From: a bacterium
GTDB taxonomy: Bacteria; Myxococcota_A; Bradymonadia; UBA7976; UBA1532
DNA length: 64,000 nt
Direction of reading: 5' to 3'
NCBI GenBank assembly: GCA_030427205.1
Contig: JAUHXC010000011.1
Location: 172,016 to 236,015, forward strand
Every line of letters begins with the position of its first letter. Positions within the stretch are counted from its first letter, which is position 1. The notes under the pieces are model-generated. The model saw nothing but the letters and a program-made list of their open reading frames with translations. It had not been told where the DNA came from and did not search any database. Positions 11,726-55,354 of this stretch are shown here, piece by piece. The translations under genes and the position numbers were made by a program.

Positions 11726-12388
11726 TCAGCCGGCCGGGCTCGGCTCGGGGCCGGTCTCCATGTTCGCGCGCACGTTGCGGATGATGGTGCGGATCCTGTG
11801 CTGCCAGTTGTAGACCACCTGGGTGGTGACCTGCATCACCTCCGCGACATCGGCCGGCTTTCGCCCGTCGACGTAGATGTAGGTGAAGATGAGCTTGCCC
11901 CGCTCGGGCAGGGTGTCGATCAGCGCCGCCTTCAGCCGCCCGGCGAGCTCGCGGCTCATCGCCTGCGCCTCCGGGTCGGCGCCGCCGGAGAGCCCGTGCA
12001 GGTCGTCGAGGTTGGTCATGGTGACGTTGCCTCCGCTCTTCTGGGTCTCGGTCTTGATGCGCTCGCCGCGGGTCTTCGAGCGGGCGACGACGGTCACGTA
12101 GGCCTCCAGGTTGCCCCGCGTCGGGTCGAACTTGCGCAGCACCGCCGCGTCCTTGTCGAGGATGTGGGTCCAGACCTCCTGCACCAGATCGTCGCCGTCG
12201 TGCGCCCCGAGCGTGAAGCGGCCGCGCTTGCGCAGGGCGTAGCGCACGGTGCGCCGGATGATCGGCATCAGCCACTCGACGAGGTCGCGCATCGCCCGCC
12301 GGTCACCGCCGAGCGCCTTCTTCAAGAGATCAACGCCCGCGTCGACGGCCACCGACATGGCCACCGTCAGCAACCAGAAGCCATTCAT
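11726..12388 (-). CDS. ECF (sigma-70 family) RNA polymerase sigma factor
   Basis: Region 2 (DLVQEVWTHILDK) and region 4 HTH (IFTYIYVDGRKPADVAEVMQVTTQVVYNWQHRIR); start overlaps upstream anti-sigma stop (ATGA). Confidence 0.7.
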   Translation of the reverse strand: MNGFWLLTVAMSVAVDAGVDLLKKALGGDRRAMRDLVEWLMPIIRRTVRYALRKRGRFTLGAHDGDDLVQEVWTHILDKDAAVLRKFDPTRGNLEAYVTVVARSKTRGERIKTETQKSGGNVTMTNLDDLHGLSGGADPEAQAMSRELAGRLKAALIDTLPERGKLIFTYIYVDGRKPADVAEVMQVTTQVVYNWQHRIRTIIRNVRANMETGPEPSPAG

Positions 12389-13179
12389 TCGGACCCCTCC
12401 TTCCGGTCGACGTAGTCGAACTCGACCGCGTGCCAGCGTACGCCGCCCTCGTCTTCAGAGGTGGGTAGGGATTCGCCGGCGAGCCCTTGCAACTGCGCCT
12501 CGTCGAAGGCGAAGGCGACGTGCAGGCTGCGCTGACCGAGCCGGTCTCCGAGGATCCGGGTGATCGGCGCTTCGAGGGTCCACGCGCCGCCGGCACCGAA
12601 CTGCCCTTGCGCCTTCGAGAGTTCGAGCTTGCCGCCCTCATCGACGAAGGCCCGGGCGGTGATGGCCGCGTCTGCTTTGGCGTCGAGGTCCTCGCCGGGC
12701 TTGAGGATCACCGTCACCGTCGCCTCGTTGTCGACGCGATACGGTCCTCCGACGGACGGCCCGCGGAGCGGCGACTCGTCCCCGCGGACCAGCTTTTGGG
12801 CGCCGACGACGTCGAAGACCGCGTAGCCCGGCGGCGGATCGACCGTGGGCCGCATCACGAAGAAGGCCACCGCCGCCGCCAGGCTCAGCAGGGTCACCGT
12901 CGGGGCGATCCACCGCTTCGGGGGCCGCACCGCGCGGGTGCCGTGCTTGACCGCCCAGGCCTGTACGAACGCGCTCGGCGCGTCCTCGAACTCGTCGATG
13001 AAGGCCCGCGCCGCCGGATCGGCCGCCAGCATGACTTCGGCGCGGGCGGTCTCCACCTCGTCGAGCTCACCGGCGCGCCAGGCCATCAGGAGCGCCAGAT
13101 CGGCCTCCTCCTCGGGGGGGTCGAGCAGCGGCCCCAGGCCGCTGGCGAGGGCGTCGATGTCGTCGTCGCTGAGGGTCAT
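12385..13179 (-). CDS. putative transmembrane anti-sigma factor
   Basis: Cytoplasmic N-term (Glu/Asp-rich), single TM (WIAPTVTLLSLAAAVAFFVM), periplasmic C-term; 4-bp overlaps with CHAT gene upstream and sigma gene downstream. Confidence 0.5.
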   Translation of the reverse strand: MTLSDDDIDALASGLGPLLDPPEEEADLALLMAWRAGELDEVETARAEVMLAADPAARAFIDEFEDAPSAFVQAWAVKHGTRAVRPPKRWIAPTVTLLSLAAAVAFFVMRPTVDPPPGYAVFDVVGAQKLVRGDESPLRGPSVGGPYRVDNEATVTVILKPGEDLDAKADAAITARAFVDEGGKLELSKAQGQFGAGGAWTLEAPITRILGDRLGQRSLHVAFAFDEAQLQGLAGESLPTSEDEGGVRWHAVEFDYVDRKEGSE

Positions 13180-44124: not shown

Positions 44125-44382
44125 ATGGCCCTCGACCCCGACTTCCTCGCCGCGCTCATCTGCCCCGACTCCCGCGAGCCGCTCGCGGAGGCCGACGCCG
44201 GGCTGGTGGACAAGGTCAACCGCGCGATCGCCGACGGGCTGAAGAACAAGGGGGGCGAGGCGGTGGAGAAGCCGCTCGACGGCGGCTTGCTGCGCGCCGA
44301 CGGCAAGGTGCTCTATCCCATCTGGAATGAGATCCCGAACCTGCTCGTCGACGAGGGGATCGCGGTCGACGAGCTGGGCTGA
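44125..44382 (+). CDS. Trm112-family small protein (UPF0434-like) with internal insertion
   Basis: LAALICPDSREPL ... KVLYPIWNEIPNLLVDEG matches Trm112p-like CP...YPI..GIP.LL pattern. Confidence 0.6.
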   Translation: MALDPDFLAALICPDSREPLAEADAGLVDKVNRAIADGLKNKGGEAVEKPLDGGLLRADGKVLYPIWNEIPNLLVDEGIAVDELG

Positions 44383-45545: not shown

Positions 45546-46367
45546 ATGCGTCGCATCGCTGCTGCGTTCACCGCGCTGACCATCGCCGCGGGGCCCGCGC
45601 TCGCCACCGAGCCCGGCCAGACGATCGATCCGACCGCCGCCCCCGCGCCGGGTGTGTTGATCGCCCAGGCGGGCATCGACGCGCTCGACGCCGATATGGA
45701 CGACGAGATCTCCCTGGAGGACTTGCAGAGGATCGAGTTCGACGAGAGCGCGCAGTCCCTCGGCGCGGCCATCGGGCTCAGCCTGATCCCCGGGGCCGGC
45801 TGGGGGCTGATGTACGCCGACAAGTCCGCGCAGTCGACGGTGCCCTTCCTGCTGTCGGCGGTGGGCTACTCGCTGGGCGCGATGTACATGGCCGGCCTCT
45901 TCGATGAGCAGGCCACCCAGATCTGCAACCATGTGCGCGACGGCCGGGTCGGCTTCGACGAGTGCGGGTACGGCGACATCGTCTTCGACCCCAACGTCGA
46001 CCAGATCGACAACAACGACATCGACCCCCGCGACAACCAGAACCCGGCGCGGGCCTACTTCGCCACCAAGTCCGACTACGAGTACGCCACCCGCGGCGAA
46101 GACTTCGACGGCACCACCACCGGGCTGATCATCCTCGGCAGCACCTACGTGGTCACCACGCTCATCGGCGCGGTGTGGGCCGGCTCGACGGTCTACGAGT
46201 TCAACGAGCAGCTGCGCAAGGACATCGAGTCGACCGCCGGCCGCGACGCCGTCGCCCGCGCCGAGGACGTGCGGGCGAGCGAGCCCGCCGTCGAGGCGCT
46301 GCCGCCGCGGCCCTACTTCGGCTACACCGGCCGCGAGGGCGTCGTGGGGCTCGTGCTCGACTTCTGA
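45546..46367 (+). CDS. hypothetical exported membrane protein
   Basis: Signal peptide MRRIAAAFTALTIAAGPALA; two hydrophobic segments; Asp/Asn-rich loop DQIDNNDIDPRDNQNP. Confidence 0.45.
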   Translation: MRRIAAAFTALTIAAGPALATEPGQTIDPTAAPAPGVLIAQAGIDALDADMDDEISLEDLQRIEFDESAQSLGAAIGLSLIPGAGWGLMYADKSAQSTVPFLLSAVGYSLGAMYMAGLFDEQATQICNHVRDGRVGFDECGYGDIVFDPNVDQIDNNDIDPRDNQNPARAYFATKSDYEYATRGEDFDGTTTGLIILGSTYVVTTLIGAVWAGSTVYEFNEQLRKDIESTAGRDAVARAEDVRASEPAVEALPPRPYFGYTGREGVVGLVLDF

Positions 46368-46437
46368 GCCGCGCCCCTGCGCTGCCCCCTTCGCCGCGCC
46401 CGCCCGTTCGCCGCCCCGCCCGATCCGCCATTCCGTC

Positions 46438-47343
46438 TTGATCGCCCTGCTGCTCGCCATCGCCGCCAGCGCCACCATGGCCCTAGTGCTCAAGCTCTCC
46501 GAGAGCCGCGACCTCGATCGCTACGCGGTCACCGCCATCAACTACGTGATCGCCGCGGGCGGCGCGGCGCTGATGGGCCTGGGCCTCGACTGGGGCGCGG
46601 TCTTCGCCCCCGGGATGCAGCAGACCATCATCGACGCGGTGCTCTCCGGCGAGCGGGTCGCGCCGGCCCACGGGCCCACCTGGGCCGCCCGCTGGGGGCT
46701 GGTGACCGGGGTCTTGCTCTTCGCCGGCCTGATCAGCCTGCAGATCGCCATCCGGCGTCACGGGGTCGGGCTGTCGACGGCGATGGCCAAGCTGGGGGTG
46801 CTGGTGCCGATGACCCTGGCCATCGGCCTGTGGGGTGAGCACCCGCAGCCGGTGCAGTGGGCCGGCATCGGGCTGGCGCTGGCCGCCATCGTGCTGGCCA
46901 ACTGGCCCGACGACGGCGACCGCTGGCGCGACGCGATCCGCCCGGCGCTGGTCGTCGTGCTCGTCTGCGTCGGGCTCTCCGAGTTCAGCGGCAAGGTCTT
47001 CCAGCAGAACGGGCACCTCGCCGACAAGCCGATCTTCCTCGCGGTGGGCTTCGGCGCCGCCGGCGTCATCGCCTGGCTGGTGGTCGCCGCGCGCCGTCGG
47101 CGGTTCGGGTCGAGCGAGGTCGCGGTGGGCATCGCGGTGGGCGTGCCCAACCTGTTCAGCATCGGCAGCCTCGTCGACGCGCTCGACGTCTTGCCGGCGG
47201 CGGTCGTCTTCCCGATCTTCGCCGCCGGATCGCTGCTCGTCGTGCAGATCGCCGGGGTCGTGGTCTTCGGCGAGCGGCCCGACCGCAAGGGCTGGGCCGC
47301 GGTCGCGCTGACCGGCGTCGCGCTGGTGCTCATCAACCTCTGA
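46438..47343 (+). CDS. EamA/DMT-superfamily transporter (10 TM)
   Basis: Two tandem 5-TM halves, hydrophobicity pattern typical of EamA domains. Confidence 0.6.
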   Translation: MIALLLAIAASATMALVLKLSESRDLDRYAVTAINYVIAAGGAALMGLGLDWGAVFAPGMQQTIIDAVLSGERVAPAHGPTWAARWGLVTGVLLFAGLISLQIAIRRHGVGLSTAMAKLGVLVPMTLAIGLWGEHPQPVQWAGIGLALAAIVLANWPDDGDRWRDAIRPALVVVLVCVGLSEFSGKVFQQNGHLADKPIFLAVGFGAAGVIAWLVVAARRRRFGSSEVAVGIAVGVPNLFSIGSLVDALDVLPAAVVFPIFAAGSLLVVQIAGVVVFGERPDRKGWAAVALTGVALVLINL

Positions 47344-47351
47344 GCCGACGG

Positions 47352-48521
47352 TCAGCCGCGCGGCACCGGATTGCGCGGCCCCAGATCGCCCAGGACCCCG
47401 TCGACGATACGATCGTAGCCCAGGCGCCGCGCCCGGGCGGCGCGCTCGGCGCGGGCGCCCGCCGGCTCATCGGCGACGCTGGCCGCGCCGTGCACCAGCG
47501 CCGCCGCCAGCGCAGGCACCGAGCCCGCGGCGAAGAGCCGGCCGTCGGCCGGGCCGGTCAGCAGCCAATCCATCGAGCCGCCGTCCGCCAGCACGCCGAA
47601 GAGGCCGGTGCCCAGCGCCTCCTGGGCCGAGATCGACGGCCGCACGAAGACCGCCAGATCGGCCGCGCGAAACGCGTCCGCCAGCGCCTGCCGATCGCCG
47701 AACGGTCGCCGGTGCAGGCGCGCCCGATGTCGGCTGCTGTCGAGCGCCGCCGCCATCCGCCGGCTCACCGGGCCATCGTCGAAGCCCACGAACAGGCCAT
47801 CCAGCGTCGGCGACCGGTCCATCGCCCGCTCGAGCCCGGCCAGCGCCATGGTCAGGGCCGCCTGCTTCTCGGGCGCAAAGCGCGACGAGACCACCGCGAC
47901 CACCCGGCCGGCGTGGCGCGCCGGGCGCGGCGCCTCGACGAAGCCGAAGACCCGCGGATCGAAGCCCAGCGGCGTCGGCCGCAGCTTCGGCTCGGCCAGC
48001 GCCCGCAGCCGGCGGGGCAGCAGGTCGAGCACGATGCCCGCCGTCTCGGGGGTATTGCAGACCACGCGCTCGGCCCGCTGCGCGGCCAGGGCCACCGCCG
48101 GGCCGCGGATCAGGCGGTAGGCCAGGGCCAGCCCGCGCTCGCGCAAAGGCGCCGACCCGCGCCAGTCGAAGGCGTGCATCTGTCGGTTCTGGCCCATGAA
48201 CGCCACCAGCGGCACGCCGGACAACGCCCGGTCGCGGGCCATGTCGACCCCGAAGCCCTGCGGCGGGCCGAACCACAGGATCAGATCGGGCGCGAAGCGG
48301 CGGACCGCGGGCGCCAGCGCCCGACTGTAGAAGAGGTGACGCGCGGGCAGGCCGTAGGCGGGCACCCGCTCATGGTGGCCTGACACCGCAGCGCGGCCGG
48401 GCGCACCCGGGCTGAAGACCCGGACCGTCTGGCCCCGGCGGACCAGCTCCTCGGTCCAGAGGTTCTCCTGATAGCTGAAGCCGGCCCGGAACGAGCCGCT
48501 GACCACCGCGATCCGGCCCAC
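47352..48521 (-). CDS. glycosyltransferase (GT-B fold, family 1/4-like)
   Basis: MGRIAVVSGSFRAGFSYQENL... N-terminal acceptor domain and C-terminal E..(8)..E-like region; assignment by overall pattern only. Confidence 0.5.
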   Translation of the reverse strand: MGRIAVVSGSFRAGFSYQENLWTEELVRRGQTVRVFSPGAPGRAAVSGHHERVPAYGLPARHLFYSRALAPAVRRFAPDLILWFGPPQGFGVDMARDRALSGVPLVAFMGQNRQMHAFDWRGSAPLRERGLALAYRLIRGPAVALAAQRAERVVCNTPETAGIVLDLLPRRLRALAEPKLRPTPLGFDPRVFGFVEAPRPARHAGRVVAVVSSRFAPEKQAALTMALAGLERAMDRSPTLDGLFVGFDDGPVSRRMAAALDSSRHRARLHRRPFGDRQALADAFRAADLAVFVRPSISAQEALGTGLFGVLADGGSMDWLLTGPADGRLFAAGSVPALAAALVHGAASVADEPAGARAERAARARRLGYDRIVDGVLGDLGPRNPVPRG

Positions 48522-48524
48522 CGC

Positions 48525-49316
48525 TCAGGTGCCGCCGGCCGCGCCCGCTTCGCCGCGCTCGAAGATGAGGATGTACTGCCGCGACAGGGTCTCTTCGTCG
48601 CGCACCACCGCCCGATAGCCGGCGGCCTTCATCTCGGCCTCGACGGTCTCCGGCGCCAGCCGCATTGCCGGCGGCGGCCCCTTGCCTTCGAACTCGAGCT
48701 TGTAGTCGACGATCGCCACCCGGCCCGCCGGCTTCAGCGACGACGCGAGGCGGGTGAAGTAGGCCGTGCGGTCGCCGATGTGGTGGTAGGTATTGGTCAG
48801 CATCACCAGATCGACCGGCTGGGGGATGCGCGCGTCGTCGACGGTCGCCTCGATCGGCTCGACGTTGCTCAGGCCCATCTGCGCCGCCCGCTGGCCGAGG
48901 TACTCGACCATCTTCGGCGCGAGGTCGATGGCGTAGACCGTGCCCTCGGGCGCCTTCTGGGCCAGCCGCATCGCGAAGTAGCCGGTGCCGGCGCCGATGT
49001 CGGCGATCAGATCAGCCGGCTTCGGCGCGATCACCGCCAGCACGGCGTCGGGCTTCTGCCACGCGTCGCGCTCGGCGGTGTCCCACTTACCGGCCCACTC
49101 GGCCGGGTTGTCGAAGCGGTGGTGGTGGTGGCCGTGCTTCGCGCCGTGGTGGCCGTGCTTCTCGCCGTGGTGCATGTGCTCACCGTGGGGCTGGCTGGTC
49201 GGGGCGGCGTGCGTATCGCCGGCCGGCGCAGGCGCCCCGCCGCACCCGGCGAGCCACAGGCCCGCCGCCAGCAGAGCGAGCGGCGATACGAGCCACGACA
49301 GAGCGCGGTACTGCAT
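48525..49316 (-). CDS. exported class-I SAM-dependent methyltransferase lipoprotein with His-rich N-terminal segment
   Basis: MQYRALSWLVSPLALLAAGLWLAGC lipobox; HGEHMHHGEKHGHHGAKHGHHHH tract; DIGAGTGYF motif I; three alternative in-frame ATGs (49316, 49331, 49346) within a 15-bp tandem triplication. Confidence 0.55.
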   Translation of the reverse strand: MQYRALSWLVSPLALLAAGLWLAGCGGAPAPAGDTHAAPTSQPHGEHMHHGEKHGHHGAKHGHHHHRFDNPAEWAGKWDTAERDAWQKPDAVLAVIAPKPADLIADIGAGTGYFAMRLAQKAPEGTVYAIDLAPKMVEYLGQRAAQMGLSNVEPIEATVDDARIPQPVDLVMLTNTYHHIGDRTAYFTRLASSLKPAGRVAIVDYKLEFEGKGPPPAMRLAPETVEAEMKAAGYRAVVRDEETLSRQYILIFERGEAGAAGGT

Positions 49317-49378
49317 GAGGGAGGACTGCATGAGGGGGGACTGCATGGCCGGCAGGCTGCACCATCGACCGCCCGCCG

Positions 49379-49930
49379 TCAATCGAGCGGAGCGCCCGGG
49401 CCGCTGTCATCCGGCCCGTCGGGCCCGCCGCGATGCCCGCGCTTGCCGCGGTGACCGCGCTTGCCGCGCTTGCCGCGGGCGCGCCGCTCGCTGCGCATCT
49501 GCTTGAGCTGGCTGCGCTGCTCGGGGGTCAGCATGCCGCGCACGTCGAGCATCAGCCCGATCTGGTGCTGCCGCAGGCGGGTCTCGAGATCACCCACCTC
49601 CTCGACCCGCGTCATCACCGCGCCCTTGTCCGGCGCGTCGGCGTCGAGGGCCCGCCGCAGCTCCAGCTTGGCCAGCTCGAGCTTCGCCTTGAGGTCGATG
49701 CCGATCTTCTCGGCCTGATAGACGCGGTCCTTGATGCGCGACAGGGTCGCGTCGTCGAGGCCGAGCCGGCCGGCGGCCCGCTCGAGCATGCGCAGGTTGA
49801 ACTCGGCCCCCGGCCGGCCGTGGCCGGGCCCGCCGGGTCCCTTGCGGGCGAGGGCGGTGCCCGCCGTCGCCATGAGGAAGGCCAACAGCAGCGTGAGCGG
49901 GACGAAGAGCGTACGGGTCGGGCGGTTCAT
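49379..49930 (-). CDS. periplasmic LTXXQ-motif protein (CpxP/Spy/ZraP family-like)
   Basis: ATGA overlap with anti-sigma stop; signal peptide MNRPTRTLFVPLTLLLAFLMATAGTALA; LTPEQRSQL motif; polybasic Gly/Arg/Lys tail. Confidence 0.55.
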   Translation of the reverse strand: MNRPTRTLFVPLTLLLAFLMATAGTALARKGPGGPGHGRPGAEFNLRMLERAAGRLGLDDATLSRIKDRVYQAEKIGIDLKAKLELAKLELRRALDADAPDKGAVMTRVEEVGDLETRLRQHQIGLMLDVRGMLTPEQRSQLKQMRSERRARGKRGKRGHRGKRGHRGGPDGPDDSGPGAPLD

Positions 49931-50484
49931 GGCCAGTCCTCCGCGTAGGGGTCGTAGGGTTCGATGTCGATGAGGCCGGCGAGCACGGTGTACTCGTCGG
50001 GCAGGTACGCCGGGGCGCTGTCGGTCTCGGCGTCGGCTTCGGCGTCGTTCTCGTTGTCGGCGGCGCCCGTCTCGGCGGCCAGCGCCGCGCGCTGCGCCAG
50101 GGTCGGCACCGCCAGCGGGTCGGCCGGCAGCACCGTCGAGCCGCCGAGCCAGTCGGCGGCGCTGTCGTCCACCAGCCAGTCGAGCTCCGGCGACGCGTCG
50201 TCGAGCGCGGGCGCGGCGGCCATCGCCGGCAGCGCCACCGGCTCGCCGGGCGCGCCCAGCGGCTCGGGGGCGCGCAGCGCGAAGAGCGCCACCGCCGCCG
50301 CCGCGCCGGTCACCGCCAGGCCCCACAGCCCCCAGCGCCGCCGCTGCTGGCGCTCGATGCACGCCCGCAGCCGGGCGTCGAAGCGGGTGCGCTCGACCTC
50401 GGTCAGCGGCGGCGGGGCATAACCCCGGCGGATCTGGTCGATCAGCCGGCGGTCGGCGTCGTCTCGGATATCCGACGGGTTCAT
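49927..50484 (-). CDS. transmembrane anti-sigma factor
   Basis: ATGA overlap with sigma gene; cytoplasmic N-term, TM WGLWGLAVTGAAAAVALFAL, acidic periplasmic C-term. Confidence 0.55.
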   Translation of the reverse strand: MNPSDIRDDADRRLIDQIRRGYAPPPLTEVERTRFDARLRACIERQQRRRWGLWGLAVTGAAAAVALFALRAPEPLGAPGEPVALPAMAAAPALDDASPELDWLVDDSAADWLGGSTVLPADPLAVPTLAQRAALAAETGAADNENDAEADAETDSAPAYLPDEYTVLAGLIDIEPYDPYAEDWP

Positions 50485-51044
50485 GCCGCCTCCTCTCGCA
50501 GATCGTTCAGCTCGGCGCGCAGCTTCTTGAGCGCGCGGTGCAGGTGGCTCTTGACCGTGCCCGGCGCTCGGCCGAGCACCGCGGCGGTCTCCTCGACGGT
50601 CAGCCCCTCGAGGTGGATGCAGGTGAACGCCTCCCGCTGACCGGCGGAGAGGGTCTGCATCGCCTGGGCGATGCGCTGCTGCATGCCCCCGTCGGGGGTC
50701 GGCGGCTCGATGGCGCCCTGGGGCACCTCGCCGTCTTTGCTCAGCAGGCCCAGCTTGTCGCGCACCCCGTGCCAGCGCTGATGGCTGCGCACCTGGCGCA
50801 CCAGGATGCGGTGGAACCACGTCGACAGCTTGGCCTCGCCGCGGAAGCCGTCCAGCCCGCGCCAGGCCTTGACGAAGGCCTGCTGGGTCACGTCCTCCGC
50901 CGCCGCCCGGTCGCCGCCGAGCAGCCGCCAGGCCAACGCCACCGCCCGGTCGCGATGCGCGGCGACGAAGGCGTCGAAGCGCTGCGCGCGGGTCAGGTCG
51001 GCGGCCAGGGCGATCTCGGTCACGGGCGGCTCCATCGGGTTCAT
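50481..51044 (-). CDS. ECF RNA polymerase sigma factor
   Basis: Region 2 (EDVTQQAFVKAWR) and region 4 (LTVEETAAVLGRAPGTVKSHLHRA). Confidence 0.75.
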   Translation of the reverse strand: MNPMEPPVTEIALAADLTRAQRFDAFVAAHRDRAVALAWRLLGGDRAAAEDVTQQAFVKAWRGLDGFRGEAKLSTWFHRILVRQVRSHQRWHGVRDKLGLLSKDGEVPQGAIEPPTPDGGMQQRIAQAMQTLSAGQREAFTCIHLEGLTVEETAAVLGRAPGTVKSHLHRALKKLRAELNDLREEAA

Positions 51045-51121
51045 CGACTCAGAGGCGGGTGGCGGTGATGCGGTTTACGGGGGCTCGAAGAAAGGCGGGA
51101 ACGCGACGAGCGCCGATGAGC

Positions 51122-51958
51122 TCAATCGGCCGTACGCCGGGCTACCAGCGCCCGGCTCAGCGCGCCCAGCTCGTCCAGCGACAGCGCCTCGCCGCGGGCC
51201 GTGGGGTCGACCCCCGCCGCTTCGAGCAGCGCCACCGGGTCGGCGCAGACCGAGCGCAGCGCGCGGCGGGCCATCTTGCGCCGCTGGGCGAAGAGCGCGC
51301 GCACCACCGCGCGATAGGCCTTGGGGTCGCCCACGTCGATCGCCGGCGCCGGCCGGCGCTCCATGACCAGCACCGCGCTGTGCACCTTGGGCGGCGGGTG
51401 GAACGCCTGCGGCCCCACCTGAAACGCCAGCGTCGAGATCGACCACAGCGCCGCCTGGGCCGACAGCGCGCTGGTGCCGCGCTCGCCGGGCGGGGCGGCG
51501 AGGCGGGCGGCGAACTCCTGCTGCAAGAGGAAGCACGCCCGGGTCCACGCCATGGGCGCCGCGAGCAGCCCGAGCACGATCTGGGTCGAGAGGTGGTAGG
51601 GCAGGTTGCCGTAGATCACCAGCGGGCCGCCGTTGGCCTCGGCCTCGGCGGCCCAGTCGACGTCGAGCACGTCGCCCTCGCGGATGGTGACCGCCTCCTG
51701 CCCGGCGAGCTCGCTCTCCAGCACCGGGATGAGGGTGCGGTCGCGCTCGAGGGCGATGACCCGCCCGGCGCGGGCGGCCAGGGCGTGGGTCAATGTGCCC
51801 ACCCCGGCCCCGATCTCGAAGACCGTATCGCCGGCCCGCGCGCCGCCCGCCGCCGCGATGCGGTCGGGCACGCCCGGGGCCACCAGGAAGTTCTGGCCGA
51901 AGTGCTTCTTGGTCCACAGCCCGTGAGCCCGGAGGATCGTGCGCGGGTCGCGGCTCAT
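51122..51958 (-). CDS. rsmA: 16S rRNA (adenine1518/1519-N6)-dimethyltransferase RsmA/KsgA
   Basis: Internal start MSRDPRTIL (cat 51956..51958); KKHFGQNFL, EIGAGVGTLT, GNLPY motifs; track ORF extended upstream. Confidence 0.85.
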   Translation of the reverse strand: MSRDPRTILRAHGLWTKKHFGQNFLVAPGVPDRIAAAGGARAGDTVFEIGAGVGTLTHALAARAGRVIALERDRTLIPVLESELAGQEAVTIREGDVLDVDWAAEAEANGGPLVIYGNLPYHLSTQIVLGLLAAPMAWTRACFLLQQEFAARLAAPPGERGTSALSAQAALWSISTLAFQVGPQAFHPPPKVHSAVLVMERRPAPAIDVGDPKAYRAVVRALFAQRRKMARRALRSVCADPVALLEAAGVDPTARGEALSLDELGALSRALVARRTAD

Positions 51959-53040
51959 CGGGCAGCCTCGAGGGGCCGGTGCAGGCGCCAGGACGCGATG
52001 GCGGTCATCCGGCGGTCTTCGGGGGCATGCCCCGGGCCGAGGGCGGCGATGCGGGCCTGGGCGTTGGCGAAGGCGGCCCCGGCGATCATCGCCGCGTTGT
52101 CGGTGCACCAGCGCGGCCGCGGCACTTGCAGCGCGACCCCGTCTTCGGCCAGGGCGTCGCGCATGCGCTGGCGCAGCACCGAGTTGCAGGCCACGCCGCC
52201 GCTGAGCACCACGTCGCCCGCGCCCACCTGCGCCGCCGCCCGCCGGGTGCGCAGCACGAGCTGGTCGACCGCCGCCCGCTGGAAGCTGGCGAGCAGATCG
52301 GCCCGCGCCTGCCCCTCGGGCAGGCCCTCGGCGGCGTGACGCTTGATCCAGGTCAAGACCGCGGTCTTGAGCCCGCTGAAGCTGAAGTCGAGCTGCGCCC
52401 GCGGGCCGCCGTCCTTGAAGCGCGGCTGGGGGAACCGGATCGCCTCCGGGTCGCCGGGGCGGGCCAGCCGCTCGACGACCGGGCCGCCGGGATAGCCCAG
52501 GCCCAGCATGCGGCTGACCTTGTCGAACGCCTCGCCGGCGGCGTCGTCCCGGGTATTGGAGAGCTGATGCACGGTGGTCGGGTCGTCGACCCGGTACAGC
52601 GCGGTGTGCCCGCCGCTGACCGCCAGGGCCACGTGGGGCCAGGCCGGCCCGGCGGGCTTCGGCTCGTCGGGGCGATGCAGGAAGACCGCGTGCAGGTGCC
52701 CGGCGAGGTGATGCACCGGCACCAGCGGCTTGTCGTGGGCGAAGGCCAGCGCCTTGGCCACCTGCAGGCCGACGAGCAGCGCGCCGACCAGCCCCGGCCC
52801 GCGGGTGATGCCGATGGCGTCGATGTCGGCCCAGGTCAGCCCGGCGTCGCTCAGCGCCTGACGCACCACGGGCACGATGTCGACGACGTGGTTGCGGCTG
52901 GCGAGCTCGGGCACCACGCCGCCGTAGCGGGCGTGCACCTCGATCTGGGTCGCCACCGGATCGGCCAGCACCCGGTGGCCGTCCTCGACGATGGCGCAGG
53001 CGGTCTCGTCACAGCTCGTCTCGATGGCGAGGATCTTCAT
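51955..53040 (-). CDS. tsaD: tRNA N6-adenosine threonylcarbamoyltransferase TsaD (Kae1/Gcp family)
   Basis: MKILAIETSCDETA..., HxxGH metal motif (HHLAGHL), SGGVACN; 4-bp overlap with rsmA. Confidence 0.9.
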   Translation of the reverse strand: MKILAIETSCDETACAIVEDGHRVLADPVATQIEVHARYGGVVPELASRNHVVDIVPVVRQALSDAGLTWADIDAIGITRGPGLVGALLVGLQVAKALAFAHDKPLVPVHHLAGHLHAVFLHRPDEPKPAGPAWPHVALAVSGGHTALYRVDDPTTVHQLSNTRDDAAGEAFDKVSRMLGLGYPGGPVVERLARPGDPEAIRFPQPRFKDGGPRAQLDFSFSGLKTAVLTWIKRHAAEGLPEGQARADLLASFQRAAVDQLVLRTRRAAAQVGAGDVVLSGGVACNSVLRQRMRDALAEDGVALQVPRPRWCTDNAAMIAGAAFANAQARIAALGPGHAPEDRRMTAIASWRLHRPLEAAR

Positions 53041-53116: not shown

Positions 53117-55354
53117 TCAGTTGCCCAGGCCCGAGCGCAAACCCTTGAGGATCTGGGTCACGTCGGCGGCGTACTCCCCCTGGGGGGCGAGCTGCAGATA
53201 GCGCTCGTAGGCCTTGATGGCCCCCGGGATGCGGCCCAGATTCTGGCGGGCGTCGGCCAGGATGAGCTGCACCTCGGCGTCGCTGCCGTCGATGCGCGAG
53301 GCCCGCTCGGCGGCTTCGAGCGCGTCGCGGATGCGGCCCTGCTCGATGAGCGCCTTGGCGTAGGCCAGCAGGCCCGCCTTGTTGGTCGGGGCCAGCGCCA
53401 GCCCCTGCTCGAGCGCGTCGCCGGCGGCCTTGTACTTGCCCTTCTTGTAGAGGGCCAGGCCCTCGGCGATGAGCGCGCGGGCGTCGCCGGCGGGCGCGTC
53501 GGCCTTCTCGGCGGCTTCTCTGGGGGCCTCTGCCGGCTTCGCGGCCGTGCCCGCAGAGGCCTTCGGCGTCGCGCCGGCCGGCCGCTCGGCCCGGGGCGCG
53601 GGCTCGACCTTCGCCGGCGCCGGATCGGCCGCCGGCGGGGCCTCTGGAGCCGCTGGCGGGGCCTCGGGGGCCGCCTCGGGGGCTGCCGCCTCGTCGAAGC
53701 TCGGCACCGCCGGCGTCGGGCCGCCGCCCGGCTCGCTGGGGATGCGCCACTCGCCGCCGATCGGGGCGACCTTGCCCACCGGCTCGGCGGCGGCGAGCAC
53801 CGCGCGATGCCAGCCGCCGTTGCGCGGGTTCTCGGGCAGCGGCATCGGCTCGACGACGTCGCGCAGGGCGAAGAAGAGCAGCGCCCCGATCACCGCCGCC
53901 CCGCCGATGCCCATGGCGATCCAGGCGATGCGCGGCAGCGGCTCGGTCAGCGGCTCGTCGTCGAAGAGCGGGTCGTCGGCCAGGGTCGCGTCGGCCACCG
54001 CGTCGCCGGCGTGGTCGAAGAAGGCGCCCTCGTGGTCGAGGTCGGCCACCGCGTCGGTCTCGGGCAGCGCCGGGAAGTCTTCGACCTCGGGCTCGGAGAC
54101 CTCGGGCTCGGGGGCCATGACCACCCGGGCCGGGGTCGCCTTCTCGCCCAGGGCGCCCCAGGTGGAGGGCGGCTCTTCGACGGGCGGCGCGGAGGGCTCG
54201 GCGGGCAGGTCGCGGGGGCGCTGCAGGTCGTGGGGGCGCTGCAGGTCGTGAGGGCGCTGCATCACCCGCCGCGGCTCGGGCGCCGGCTCGTCGTGCACCG
54301 CCGGGAAGCCCCCGCTGGCCCGCTCGAGCAGCGCGTCGGCCAGGCTCGGGGCCGGGCCGGCGTCGGGCAGGGTGCCGGTGCTCACCGCCGCGGTCTCGAT
54401 GCGCGGGCGGGCGTCCTCGGCGACCCGGATGATGCCTTCGAAGTAGAGCTGGCTCAAGAGCCCCAGCGCCACCAGATCGGGCAGGTCGGCGTCGTCGATG
54501 ACGTCGAGCGCGGTGCGCCGACCGTCGAACATGCGCAAGAGCGCGTTGGCCTCGTCGGGCAGCTCGGCGAGCCGGTCGGCGAGCTCTTCGTAGTCGACCT
54601 CGAAGACCGACTCGAGGCCCGGCAGCTGCTCGCAGATGCGGTTCCACTCGTCGAAGCGGCGCATGCCCTCCATGAGCAGGGCCGCGGTGGGCGGCTCGAG
54701 CACCGGCGGCCGCTGGGGCTCGCGGAAGTCGATCTCGAAGTCGCCCGTCTCCCAGGTCAGCGTGCGGTAGACCGCGTCGGCGCCGCCCTGGGTGCCGGTG
54801 CTGGCGTCGATGAGGTGCCCCTTGCGGAACCACAGCGTCGCGTGGTGCCCCGGCCGGTCGATGCGCACCGTGCCGCTCTTCTCGCCCACCGACATCGTCT
54901 GGATCAGGTCGACGACGCCCATGTCGCCCAGCGAGCCGAAGAAGCGCCGGCGGGCGGGGGCCTGCTCGGCCCGCAGCCGGGCCTGCTTCTGCAGGATGGT
55001 GCGCACCCGGGCGACGAGCTCGCGGGTGTAGATCGGGCGGGTGAGGTAGTCGTCGGCCCCCAGCTCGAGGCCGCGCACCTTGCTCTCGACGGTGTCGTCT
55101 TCCGAGAGGAAGAGAAAGGGCACCCGGCTCAGCCGCGGGTCCTGCTTGAGCCGCGCGCACAGCCCGAAGCCGTCGAGCACCGGCAGGGTCGTATCGGCGA
55201 TGATCAGATCGGGGGTCACCGCCGCGGCCCGGGTCAGCGCCGCCGCGCCGTCGGTCGCGGTGGTCACCGCGTGCCCCGCGTTGCGCAGCGAGACCTCCAT
55301 CACCCGCAGGTGCTGGAGGTCGTCGTCGACCAGCAGGATGTTCGGCTTCGCCAT
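53117..55354 (-). CDS. transmembrane response-regulator-like protein: receiver + DUF4388-like domain + TM + Pro/Ala-rich linker + TPR
   Basis: ILLVDDD...LIIADTTLPVLDG (REC); GDMGVVDLIQTMSVGEKSGTVRID...GDFEIDF; TM IAWIAMGIGGAAVIGALLFFAL; C-terminal TPR-like helices. Confidence 0.6.
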   Translation of the reverse strand: MAKPNILLVDDDLQHLRVMEVSLRNAGHAVTTATDGAAALTRAAAVTPDLIIADTTLPVLDGFGLCARLKQDPRLSRVPFLFLSEDDTVESKVRGLELGADDYLTRPIYTRELVARVRTILQKQARLRAEQAPARRRFFGSLGDMGVVDLIQTMSVGEKSGTVRIDRPGHHATLWFRKGHLIDASTGTQGGADAVYRTLTWETGDFEIDFREPQRPPVLEPPTAALLMEGMRRFDEWNRICEQLPGLESVFEVDYEELADRLAELPDEANALLRMFDGRRTALDVIDDADLPDLVALGLLSQLYFEGIIRVAEDARPRIETAAVSTGTLPDAGPAPSLADALLERASGGFPAVHDEPAPEPRRVMQRPHDLQRPHDLQRPRDLPAEPSAPPVEEPPSTWGALGEKATPARVVMAPEPEVSEPEVEDFPALPETDAVADLDHEGAFFDHAGDAVADATLADDPLFDDEPLTEPLPRIAWIAMGIGGAAVIGALLFFALRDVVEPMPLPENPRNGGWHRAVLAAAEPVGKVAPIGGEWRIPSEPGGGPTPAVPSFDEAAAPEAAPEAPPAAPEAPPAADPAPAKVEPAPRAERPAGATPKASAGTAAKPAEAPREAAEKADAPAGDARALIAEGLALYKKGKYKAAGDALEQGLALAPTNKAGLLAYAKALIEQGRIRDALEAAERASRIDGSDAEVQLILADARQNLGRIPGAIKAYERYLQLAPQGEYAADVTQILKGLRSGLGN

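Follow-up and report, generated by a model that had tools for sequence, protein, structure and literature searches.

A candidate five-gene ECF sigma factor unit with an exported, His-rich methyltransferase in an uncultured Myxococcota lineage

Our analysis of a 64,000-nucleotide (nt) stretch of bacterial DNA (assembly GCA_030427205.1, contig JAUHXC010000011.1, positions 172,016–236,015; hereafter, the window) reveals a cluster of minus-strand genes for an extracytoplasmic function (ECF) sigma factor, a putative anti-sigma factor, a periplasmic protein of the CpxP superfamily, an exported, His-rich class-I S-adenosylmethionine (SAM) methyltransferase, and a glycosyltransferase of the GT4 family. 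On balance, we read these genes as a five-gene envelope unit of one uncultured Myxococcota lineage, in which a self-regulating triad (sigma, anti-sigma, and CpxP-like protein) controls a lineage-specific cargo (methyltransferase and glycosyltransferase). The triad itself is ordinary; the value of the unit would lie in placing an unstudied protein family under an envelope-stress switch.

Gene content and conserved gene order

The initial annotation had described three genes with 4-bp overlaps followed on the same strand by a fourth, and translation reproduces all four open reading frames (ORFs) with the same coordinates and on the minus strand. Specifically, an ATGA at 50484–50481 joins the sigma stop codon to the anti-sigma start codon, and a second ATGA at 49930–49927 joins the anti-sigma stop codon to the start codon of the third gene. 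For the fourth ORF, the translation agrees letter for letter with the one quoted at the time (...LALLAAGLWLAGCGG...HGEHMHHGEKHGHHGAKHGHHHHRF...), His tract and lipobox LAGC included. A gap of 32 nt separates the CpxP-like gene from the methyltransferase gene, and the GT4 gene starts 3 nt past the methyltransferase stop codon, making the unit one gene longer than first noted. The G+C content of the window is 70–76%. A codon-usage (codon log-odds) gene caller gave these four genes again with the same starts, plus their neighbours. Its training set combined family methyltransferase genes from other loci with sure genes of the window, sigma included, so that for sigma the caller provides no independent check.

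Four further Myxococcota lineages (syntenic loci L081, L084/85, L086/87, and L088/89) share the gene order sigma, anti-sigma, Metal_resist (the Pfam family of the CpxP-like protein), methyltransferase, GT4, making five lineages with that of the window; the named relatives are metagenome-assembled genomes of Myxococcales. The methyltransferase domain of the four lineages is 70–87% identical to that of the window, sigma in the syntenic loci is 80–94% identical, and GT4 lies downstream of the methyltransferase in five of five lineages. The genes upstream of sigma vary (ksgA-tsaD in the window; DUF3604 or YtkA in other lineages), and methyltransferase homologues at 62–65% identity have another gene context altogether. 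In those syntenic lineages whose contigs extend far enough, a convergent transporter of the EamA/drug-metabolite transporter (DMT) family and then a gene for a 273-residue protein lie downstream; the EamA gene is syntenic in four lineages. We treat this transporter as context only, not as an established member of the unit.

Table 1. Features of the unit and its immediate surroundings (window coordinates)
Feature	Position	Strand	Basis or sequence
Candidate ECF-type autoregulatory promoter P1	51049..51078	-	-35 GTAAAC 51078-51073, N19, -10 TCTGA 51053-51049
ECF sigma	50481..51044	-	Pfam, NCBIfam
Putative single-pass anti-sigma	49927..50484	-	Position, topology
Periplasmic CpxP-superfamily protein (Metal_resist)	49379..49930	-	PF13801, fold
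Junction element P2, candidate internal sigma70-like promoter	49354..49382	-	TTGACG 49382-49377, N17, CAGCCT 49359-49354
Exported His-rich class-I SAM methyltransferase lipoprotein	48525..49346	-	Pfam, AlphaFold2, Foldseek
Lipoprotein signal peptide, residues 1-35	49242..49346	-	Lipobox LAGC, Cys35 codon 49244-49242
His-rich tract, residues 54-76 (23 residues)	49119..49187	-	Directly before conserved H-x-F lid motif
GT4-family glycosyltransferase without signal peptide, fifth gene	47352..48521	-	Glyco_transf_4 5e-8
EamA/DMT-family transporter, convergent with GT4	46438..47343	+	Two EamA stretches, 2.7e-10

The regulatory triad and its promoter-like elements

The first gene encodes, as initially annotated, an ECF sigma factor (group 4). 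The 187-residue protein falls within the class range of about 170–200 residues and has sigma2 and sigma4 as its only domains, the hallmark of the class (Sigma70_r2 at residues 27–90, 1e-12; Sigma70_r4_2 at residues 123–175, 5e-17; Pfam), and scores 91.5 bits against the NCBIfam superfamily model TIGR02937 (cut-off 42.9), with no equivalog reached. A further property expected of an ECF sigma factor, a conserved AAC-type promoter sequence of its own upstream, is present at the sequence level in P1. The true sigma start is probably GTG 51023, with the Shine–Dalgarno sequence GGAG at 51033–51030, rather than ATG 51044, because ATG 51044 lies only 5 nt past the −10 element of P1 and the orthologues start further down.

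P1 is a candidate autoregulated ECF promoter. When the regions upstream of sigma are aligned for the five syntenic lineages, CGTAAACCG is invariant, a 16-nt stretch is variable, CTCTGA is again invariant, and the spacing is fixed. The pattern GTAAAC-N19-TCTGA occurs once in the 64-kb window (0.00 expected) and once per syntenic locus, each time upstream of sigma. More distant triads (L091–L093) keep a −35 element, CGTAAACC or CGTAACCC, upstream of sigma, with TCGTA, TCTCA, and TCCTA as −10 variants. P1 resembles the sigmaE-type consensus, GGAACTT-N16-TCTGA.

The second gene was initially called an anti-sigma gene, and its position and N-in single-pass topology are in keeping with that call. 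In the predicted protein, a cytoplasmic N-terminus of about 50 residues leads, via RRRW, into a single transmembrane segment (WGLWGLAVTGAAAAVALFAL); the C-terminal domain beyond it is acidic and periplasmic. Among orthologues, the N-terminal RFDARLR, the transmembrane segment, and C-terminal motifs are conserved, and the acidic linker is variable. The N-terminus contains one non-conserved Cys and no His, with no zinc-finger motif and no zf-HC2 match.

The third protein consists of a signal peptide, a helical-hairpin core, and a polybasic RGKRGKRG tail, the last encoded by 9/18/27-bp tandem repeats at 49420–49496. It had been labelled an LTXXQ protein. The superfamily part of that label holds: the protein matches PF13801 Metal_resist (7e-12; 46 bits against a cut-off of 29.2) and contains one LTXXQ motif, LTPEQ (residues 134–138), in which T135, E137, and Q138 are invariant or nearly so. 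The family part does not, since PF07813 gives no match at E ≤ 0.01; more distant homologues match both PF13801 and PF07813. Direct sequence searches against solved CnrX, ZraP, and Spy structures returned weak matches only (5ihf, 0.004; CpxP, 1.3), so a fold search was needed to place the protein. The AlphaFold2 model comprises helices at residues 60–96, 102–133, and 136–158, with a predicted local distance difference test (pLDDT) score above 90 in the core, and its best folds in the PDB by Foldseek are CpxP (3itf/3qzc), ZraP (3lay), Spy (6owz), and CnrX (2y3b); the CnrX entries 2y3b, 2y3d, 2y39, and 3epv match with template-modelling (TM) scores, TM(target), of 0.68–0.76. In five orthologues, H122 is the sole invariant His, Cys is absent, and the polybasic tail is kept, a tail complementary in charge to the acidic ectodomain of the anti-sigma factor. 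The close family is small, comprising 19 proteins at E ≤ 1e-5.

The CpxP–CpxA and Spy/ZraP modules of Enterobacteria resemble this one in the helical-hairpin fold, the LTXXQ motif, the pairing of a basic surface with an acidic sensor domain, and expression under the system that the protein modulates. The partner of CpxP is a histidine kinase, whereas the partner in the window is a putative ECF anti-sigma factor. CpxP has two LTXXQ copies, whereas the window protein has one, and the polybasic repeat tail is lineage-specific.

The layout of the triad is that of ECF281 and ECF290 (formerly ECF20; ECF classification 2.0, Casas-Pastor et al. 2021; PMC7826278), for which the group descriptions give an anti-sigma factor at +1 and a heavy-metal-resistance protein at +2 and consider the groups metal-related. 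Shared with the window are the anti-sigma factor at +1, the PF13801 protein at +2, and presumed autoregulation. Three differences stand out: ECF281 has a zinc-finger (HxxxCxxC) anti-sigma factor at +1, which the window anti-sigma factor is not; ECF290 has an RskA-like one, whereas that of the window has no Pfam match at E ≤ 0.01, remote homology being possible; and a cargo of exported methyltransferase and GT4 does not figure in the group descriptions consulted. Three members of the close CpxP-like family sit in the same sigma/anti-sigma/Metal_resist triad with other genes downstream, namely TPR plus Laminin_G_3, a Rotamase_2 peptidyl-prolyl isomerase (PPIase), and nothing. Given the published architecture and these sister triads, the triad is a known module type with variable cargo, and the window triad is a new member of it.

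Could the triad be a dedicated metal sensor of the CnrYXH type, in which the CpxP-fold protein is a direct receptor for Ni, Co, Zn, or Cu and relays the signal via the anti-sigma factor, and the methyltransferase buffers or detoxifies the metal? CnrYXH of Cupriavidus metallidurans (ECF291) likewise uses a CnrX-fold periplasmic protein, a membrane anti-sigma factor, and an ECF sigma factor as an extracytoplasmic sensor. PF13801 is the family of CnrX and ZraP, the structural matches include CnrX, and the groups with the same layout are considered metal-related. The methyltransferase bears a His tract, and loci of its family contain FeoB-FeoC (a Methylosinus plasmid), a Pfam-confirmed efflux protein (L071), and, by reading, CopC-CopD (L020). 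We nevertheless consider a metal sensor of this type distinctly unlikely. The metal site of CnrX is His3-Glu(-Met), and with one invariant His and no Cys in the five CpxP-like orthologues such a 3-His/Glu site cannot form. The gene order cnrY-X-H differs from that of the window, and Cnr controls an efflux pump of the resistance-nodulation-division (RND) type, whereas the window unit contains no efflux pump or metal transporter and has no RND, cation diffusion facilitator, or P-type ATPase gene in or beside it. The sister triads carry PPIase or TPR proteins as cargo; in view of the PPIase cargo and the missing CnrX-type site, we favour a response to general envelope stress rather than a sensor devoted to metal. 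The metal or envelope-stress regulon first proposed stays plausible by analogy with ECF281/ECF290; the missing CnrX-type site and the non-metal cargo of the sister triads count against its metal-specific form.

A second conserved element, P2, lies at the junction between the CpxP-like gene and the methyltransferase gene. It ends 7 nt before the methyltransferase ATG at 49346, and its TTGACG contains the stop codon of the third gene. In the five lineages the hexamers and the 17-nt spacing are invariant and the spacer letters are variable, and within the syntenic loci the pattern occurs at this junction only. The combination of fixed spacing and free spacer sequence suggests that P2 may act as an internal promoter of the sigma70-like type, yielding an mRNA with little or no leader. 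A scan with sigma70 and terminator consensus models called no promoter, P2 included; on the coding strand it found no terminator-like site inside the unit, the only such site being on the non-coding strand. A structured RNA element at the junction was rejected (RNAalifold −4.5 kcal/mol, with a positive covariation term), and an Rfam search of 46000–52500 gave no match.

With P2 placed before the methyltransferase, we infer, rather than observe, that the methyltransferase depends on the ECF sigma factor. It is possible, if somewhat unlikely, that the methyltransferase and GT4 form a separate transcription unit, with a promoter of their own and a leaderless mRNA, unrelated to the ECF signal. The fixed spacing and free spacer of TTGACG-N17-CAGCCT, 7 nt before the ATG, speak for such a unit, as do triads elsewhere without the methyltransferase and methyltransferases elsewhere without the triad. 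Against it stand the short gap to the CpxP-like gene with no terminator-like site between, and an order and orientation that are constant in five lineages despite the rearranged genes upstream of sigma; an internal promoter is, besides, compatible with read-through.

The methyltransferase and its exported family

Pfam agrees with the initial class-I methyltransferase call (Methyltransf_25, _31, _12, and _11 match at 1e-13 to 1e-17); NCBIfam assigns no curated family. The AlphaFold2 model has pLDDT above 95 for residues 78–265, with residues 1–77 (signal peptide and His linker) disordered. The ordered part forms a Rossmann-like seven-strand fold with 1,551 methyltransferase-type matches in the PDB at E ≤ 0.001 (Foldseek). 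The best match is 3dh0 of Aquifex aeolicus (phmmer 1e-18; Foldseek 9e-18, TM 0.87, root-mean-square deviation 2.2 Å over 188 residues, 28% identity), which shares its SAM motifs and an N-terminal H-x-F-D lid motif with the window protein; the other structural matches are small-molecule methyltransferases. The deposited 3dh0 chain begins about 4 residues before H-x-F, the construct having no signal peptide or His-rich linker. It is a structural-genomics entry, deposited as a SAM-dependent methyltransferase, and gives no substrate. Across 33 diverse family members, D116, G118, T121, G122, Y123, F124, D141, H188, and H189 are invariant. In particular, motif I (ADIGAGTGYF) and the acidic D141 at the end of beta2 are invariant, and the lid motif H-x-F...W...FD...RDAWQKP, NTYHH, GPP, and QY are invariant or nearly so.

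By alignment, the methyltransferase starts at ATG 49346 and not at TTG 49382, a choice made because ATG 49346 lines up with the start codons of four orthologues and lies directly behind the conserved P2. The N-terminus that follows is that of a predicted lipoprotein, with a positively charged n-region, a hydrophobic h-region, and a lipobox (...YRALSWLVSPLALLAAGLWLAG-C35). Its n-region is lengthened by a 15-bp x2.5 tandem duplication (49310–49347) that adds MQSPL/MQSSL, and the His tract (G-E/A-K-H-G-H-H) is encoded by a 21-bp x2.3–2.7 repeat (49125–49180). Together with the tail repeat of the CpxP-like protein, three in-frame tandem DNA repeats thus build low-complexity parts of two exported proteins, and their lengths vary between orthologues.

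The protein belongs to a large family. A full hidden Markov model scan finds 1,968 clusters at 50% identity (E ≤ 1e-30), one search returned more than 2,440 clusters at 90% identity, and at least 588 species genomes contain a relative. The taxa among the matches listed include Myxococcota, Alpha- and Betaproteobacteria, Acidobacteriota, Krumholzibacteriia, and others. Export signals are consistent: lipobox-CGG is present in 16 of the 16 nearest homologues, and 104 of 118 top matches begin with a signal-like N-terminus (70 of these have a lipobox and 2 are Tat-like). Species-level loci read from DNA give 66 of 69; of the other three, one has a lipobox that was missed, one has an ORF that is interrupted, and one lies at the edge of its contig. 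Diverse representatives give 93 of 109, and in most of the rest the start was called wrongly and a signal peptide lies further inside. The Tat route, by which a cofactor could travel bound to the protein, was rejected, since only 2 of 104 signal peptides have an RR-like motif. Throughout the family a His-rich region lies ahead of the domain (median 8 His among the top homologues); in the Burkholderiales versions the linker has shrunk to a mature N-terminus, SPHTHQHSF.

The initial annotation had weighed a start downstream of the signal peptide, which would make the methyltransferase cytoplasmic and the signal peptide an artefact of a wrong start codon. An in-frame Met58 does lie inside the His tract, and the database entries of a few homologues (P0067, P0086, P0094) lack a signal. 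The aligned start codons behind the conserved element, the lipobox in every one of the nearest homologues, and the signal-like N-termini across the species loci make a cytoplasmic protein very improbable.

Some family members carry extra N-terminal periplasmic domains, always ahead of the His linker. By eye, from motifs, these resemble beta-lactamase (P0234), metallo-beta-lactamase (P0247), DinB (P0271), YciI (P0246/P0248), and a multi-transmembrane HTTM protein (P0235). Tandem duplications, either two domains in one protein or two adjacent genes, occur in P0143, P0147, P0159, P0201, and four genome loci.

Our literature search found no paper on an exported methyltransferase family, and the phrase 'periplasmic methyltransferase' is absent across 7.7 million papers. 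The family is large, consistently exported, and uncharacterised, and its recognition and its pairing with the triad are new. Secreted methyltransferases as such have precedents: NleE and Rv1988 are effectors of pathogens that leave the cytoplasm of their producer. Such effectors travel through dedicated secretion systems and work inside host cells, where SAM is present, whereas the present family has Sec or lipoprotein signals and occurs in free-living soil and water bacteria.

The textbook periplasm, as far as we know, has no SAM, ATP, or NAD(P)H. For a family that is exported yet seems to keep a working SAM pocket, this leaves only three possibilities: SAM reaches the envelope, the enzymes work with something other than SAM, or the common 'methyltransferase' annotation is functionally wrong. 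In one rival reading, the fold would serve as a ligand- or metal-binding module or pseudo-enzyme, its pocket and His cluster accommodating a metal or a ligand of the adenosyl type. Export through the Sec/lipoprotein route means that the protein crosses unfolded and without cofactor, no periplasmic SAM pool is known, the literature is silent as described above, His-rich tails are typical of periplasmic metal binders, and the invariant H76, H188, and H189 lie near the pocket. We find a pseudo-enzyme rather unlikely all the same, since ADIGAGTGYF, D141, DDA-x-LP, and the beta4 D179 vary little or not at all across about 2,000 clusters, as would be expected of an active enzyme, and the closest solved relative was deposited as a SAM-dependent methyltransferase.

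An intact SAM pocket points to a genuine enzyme; export by the Sec/lipoprotein route, into a compartment where SAM is not known to occur, speaks against one. Ranked ahead of a non-catalytic binder, the most likely role is that of a metal-binding or metal-dependent envelope enzyme. A bolder prediction, which we make with considerable doubt, is that Sec/lipoprotein-exported, active SAM methyltransferases, metal-dependent and acting on an envelope or extracellular substrate, are widespread. Were this so, SAM or an equivalent adenosyl methyl donor would be needed outside the cytoplasm. The neighbouring two-EamA-domain DMT transporter is a possible SAM exporter, an idea that arises because both known bacterial SAM transporters are two-EamA-domain DMT-family proteins (PMC3104491) and the gene is syntenic in this lineage. 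Other lineages lend it no support, with one weak EamA match in 80 species.

A possible mechanism and the family in other genomes

We propose that the ECF sigma factor is held at the inner membrane by the single-pass anti-sigma factor, the acidic periplasmic domain of which would be watched by the CpxP-fold protein with its polybasic tail. Stress on the envelope, in the form of either misfolded envelope proteins or cations, would titrate or alter the CpxP-like protein; the anti-sigma factor would then be inactivated, and the freed sigma factor would transcribe the operon from GTAAAC-N19-TCTGA. The lineage-specific cargo would comprise a lipid-anchored, His-rich methyltransferase outside the cytoplasm and a cytoplasmic GT4, both probably read through from the ECF promoter and probably transcribed from a promoter of their own too.

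Several observations weigh against a five-gene unit of this kind. The anti-sigma factor has no match in Pfam (E ≤ 0.01) or NCBIfam; the CpxP-like protein has no obvious metal site; P2 could free the methyltransferase and GT4 from control by the ECF sigma factor; and, to our knowledge, no SAM is available in the periplasm, which argues against catalysis there. The context of the family elsewhere points in the same direction. We clustered the neighbours of the methyltransferase in 80 species-level loci and scanned 139 flanking genes against Pfam. No conserved operon partner emerged: 182 Pfam families were found, the commonest (Ser/Thr kinase) 6 times, and across the 80 other species an ECF sigma gene lay near the methyltransferase in 1 locus and Metal_resist in 0. 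With no recurring partner elsewhere, the link between methyltransferase and triad is lineage-specific and could be incidental. EamA and GT4 were likewise rejected as family-wide partners (EamA in 1 of 80 loci, weakly; GT4 in 0).

Some clades of the family have neighbourhoods that, on anecdotal evidence, concern envelope metal handling. In a Burkholderiales clade, a divergent OmpR-type two-component system lies upstream and a small Met/His-rich periplasmic protein, in some cases accompanied by another periplasmic domain, precedes the methyltransferase (8 loci: L071, 5525–7339; also L050, L053, L064, L065, L066, L069, and L026), and in L071 an outer-membrane efflux protein lies nearby (Pfam OEP). 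On a plasmid of Methylosinus sp. C49 (pMSC49c, NZ_AP022335.1 15551–16282; L083), a family member overlaps FeoC on its upstream side and an 'amino acid permease' on its downstream side; the operon runs outer-membrane barrel, FeoB, FeoC, methyltransferase, permease, and lies a few kb from the methanobactin gene mbnF. The His cluster and these recurring metal-related neighbourhoods (efflux, Feo, apparently Cop) provide a concrete starting hypothesis, and the family is directly testable in cultured members: Cystobacter fuscus, Archangium, Rhodomicrobium vannielii ATCC 17100, and Methylosinus sp. C49.

Further observations concern the same clades. The small secreted Burkholderiales protein is rich in Met, Gly, and His, has the conserved sequence QLMTPEERTA..KMRNA.TPEERQ, and gives no Pfam match; as a candidate homologue of the CpxP-like protein, this 'QLMTPEER' protein was rejected (hhalign probability 4.6%, with only the TPEE(Q)R motif in common). 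A Tat-signal multicopper oxidase, so labelled from reading of the sequences, also lies nearby in this clade. A periplasmic domain of about 200 residues (MLTRQD...DLVHNN...KRTVTNLPDGIKTVTESDD) forms one protein with the methyltransferase in L071 and L050 but has its own gene in L018, L053, and L069. Heavy-metal clusters of Cupriavidus contain a 'UbiG' methyltransferase, conserved beside the CzcRS two-component system and the small protein CzcL (Rmet_4461–4469 in Cupriavidus metallidurans; PMC7060636); by gene order alone, this czcLRS-ubiG arrangement resembles the Burkholderiales loci. In L020 (5639–9678, on a contig labelled Acidimicrobiia) the methyltransferase directly follows genes labelled CopC and CopD and lies beside Sco1/SenC- and PCuAC-like genes, all named by reading of translated N-termini.

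Elsewhere in the window, an ORF at 44125–44382, considered as Trm112/UPF0434-like, was dropped for want of a Pfam match. A second ECF-type sigma gene (Sigma70_r2, r4_2), with an overlapping downstream gene for a 264-residue protein, lies at 11726–13179 on the minus strand. The minus strand at 53117–55354, upstream of tsaD-ksgA, encodes a 745-residue response regulator (receiver, DUF4388/PatA_N, TPR repeats at the C-terminus), and a related receiver-PatA_N protein is also encoded near the syntenic operon in L081.

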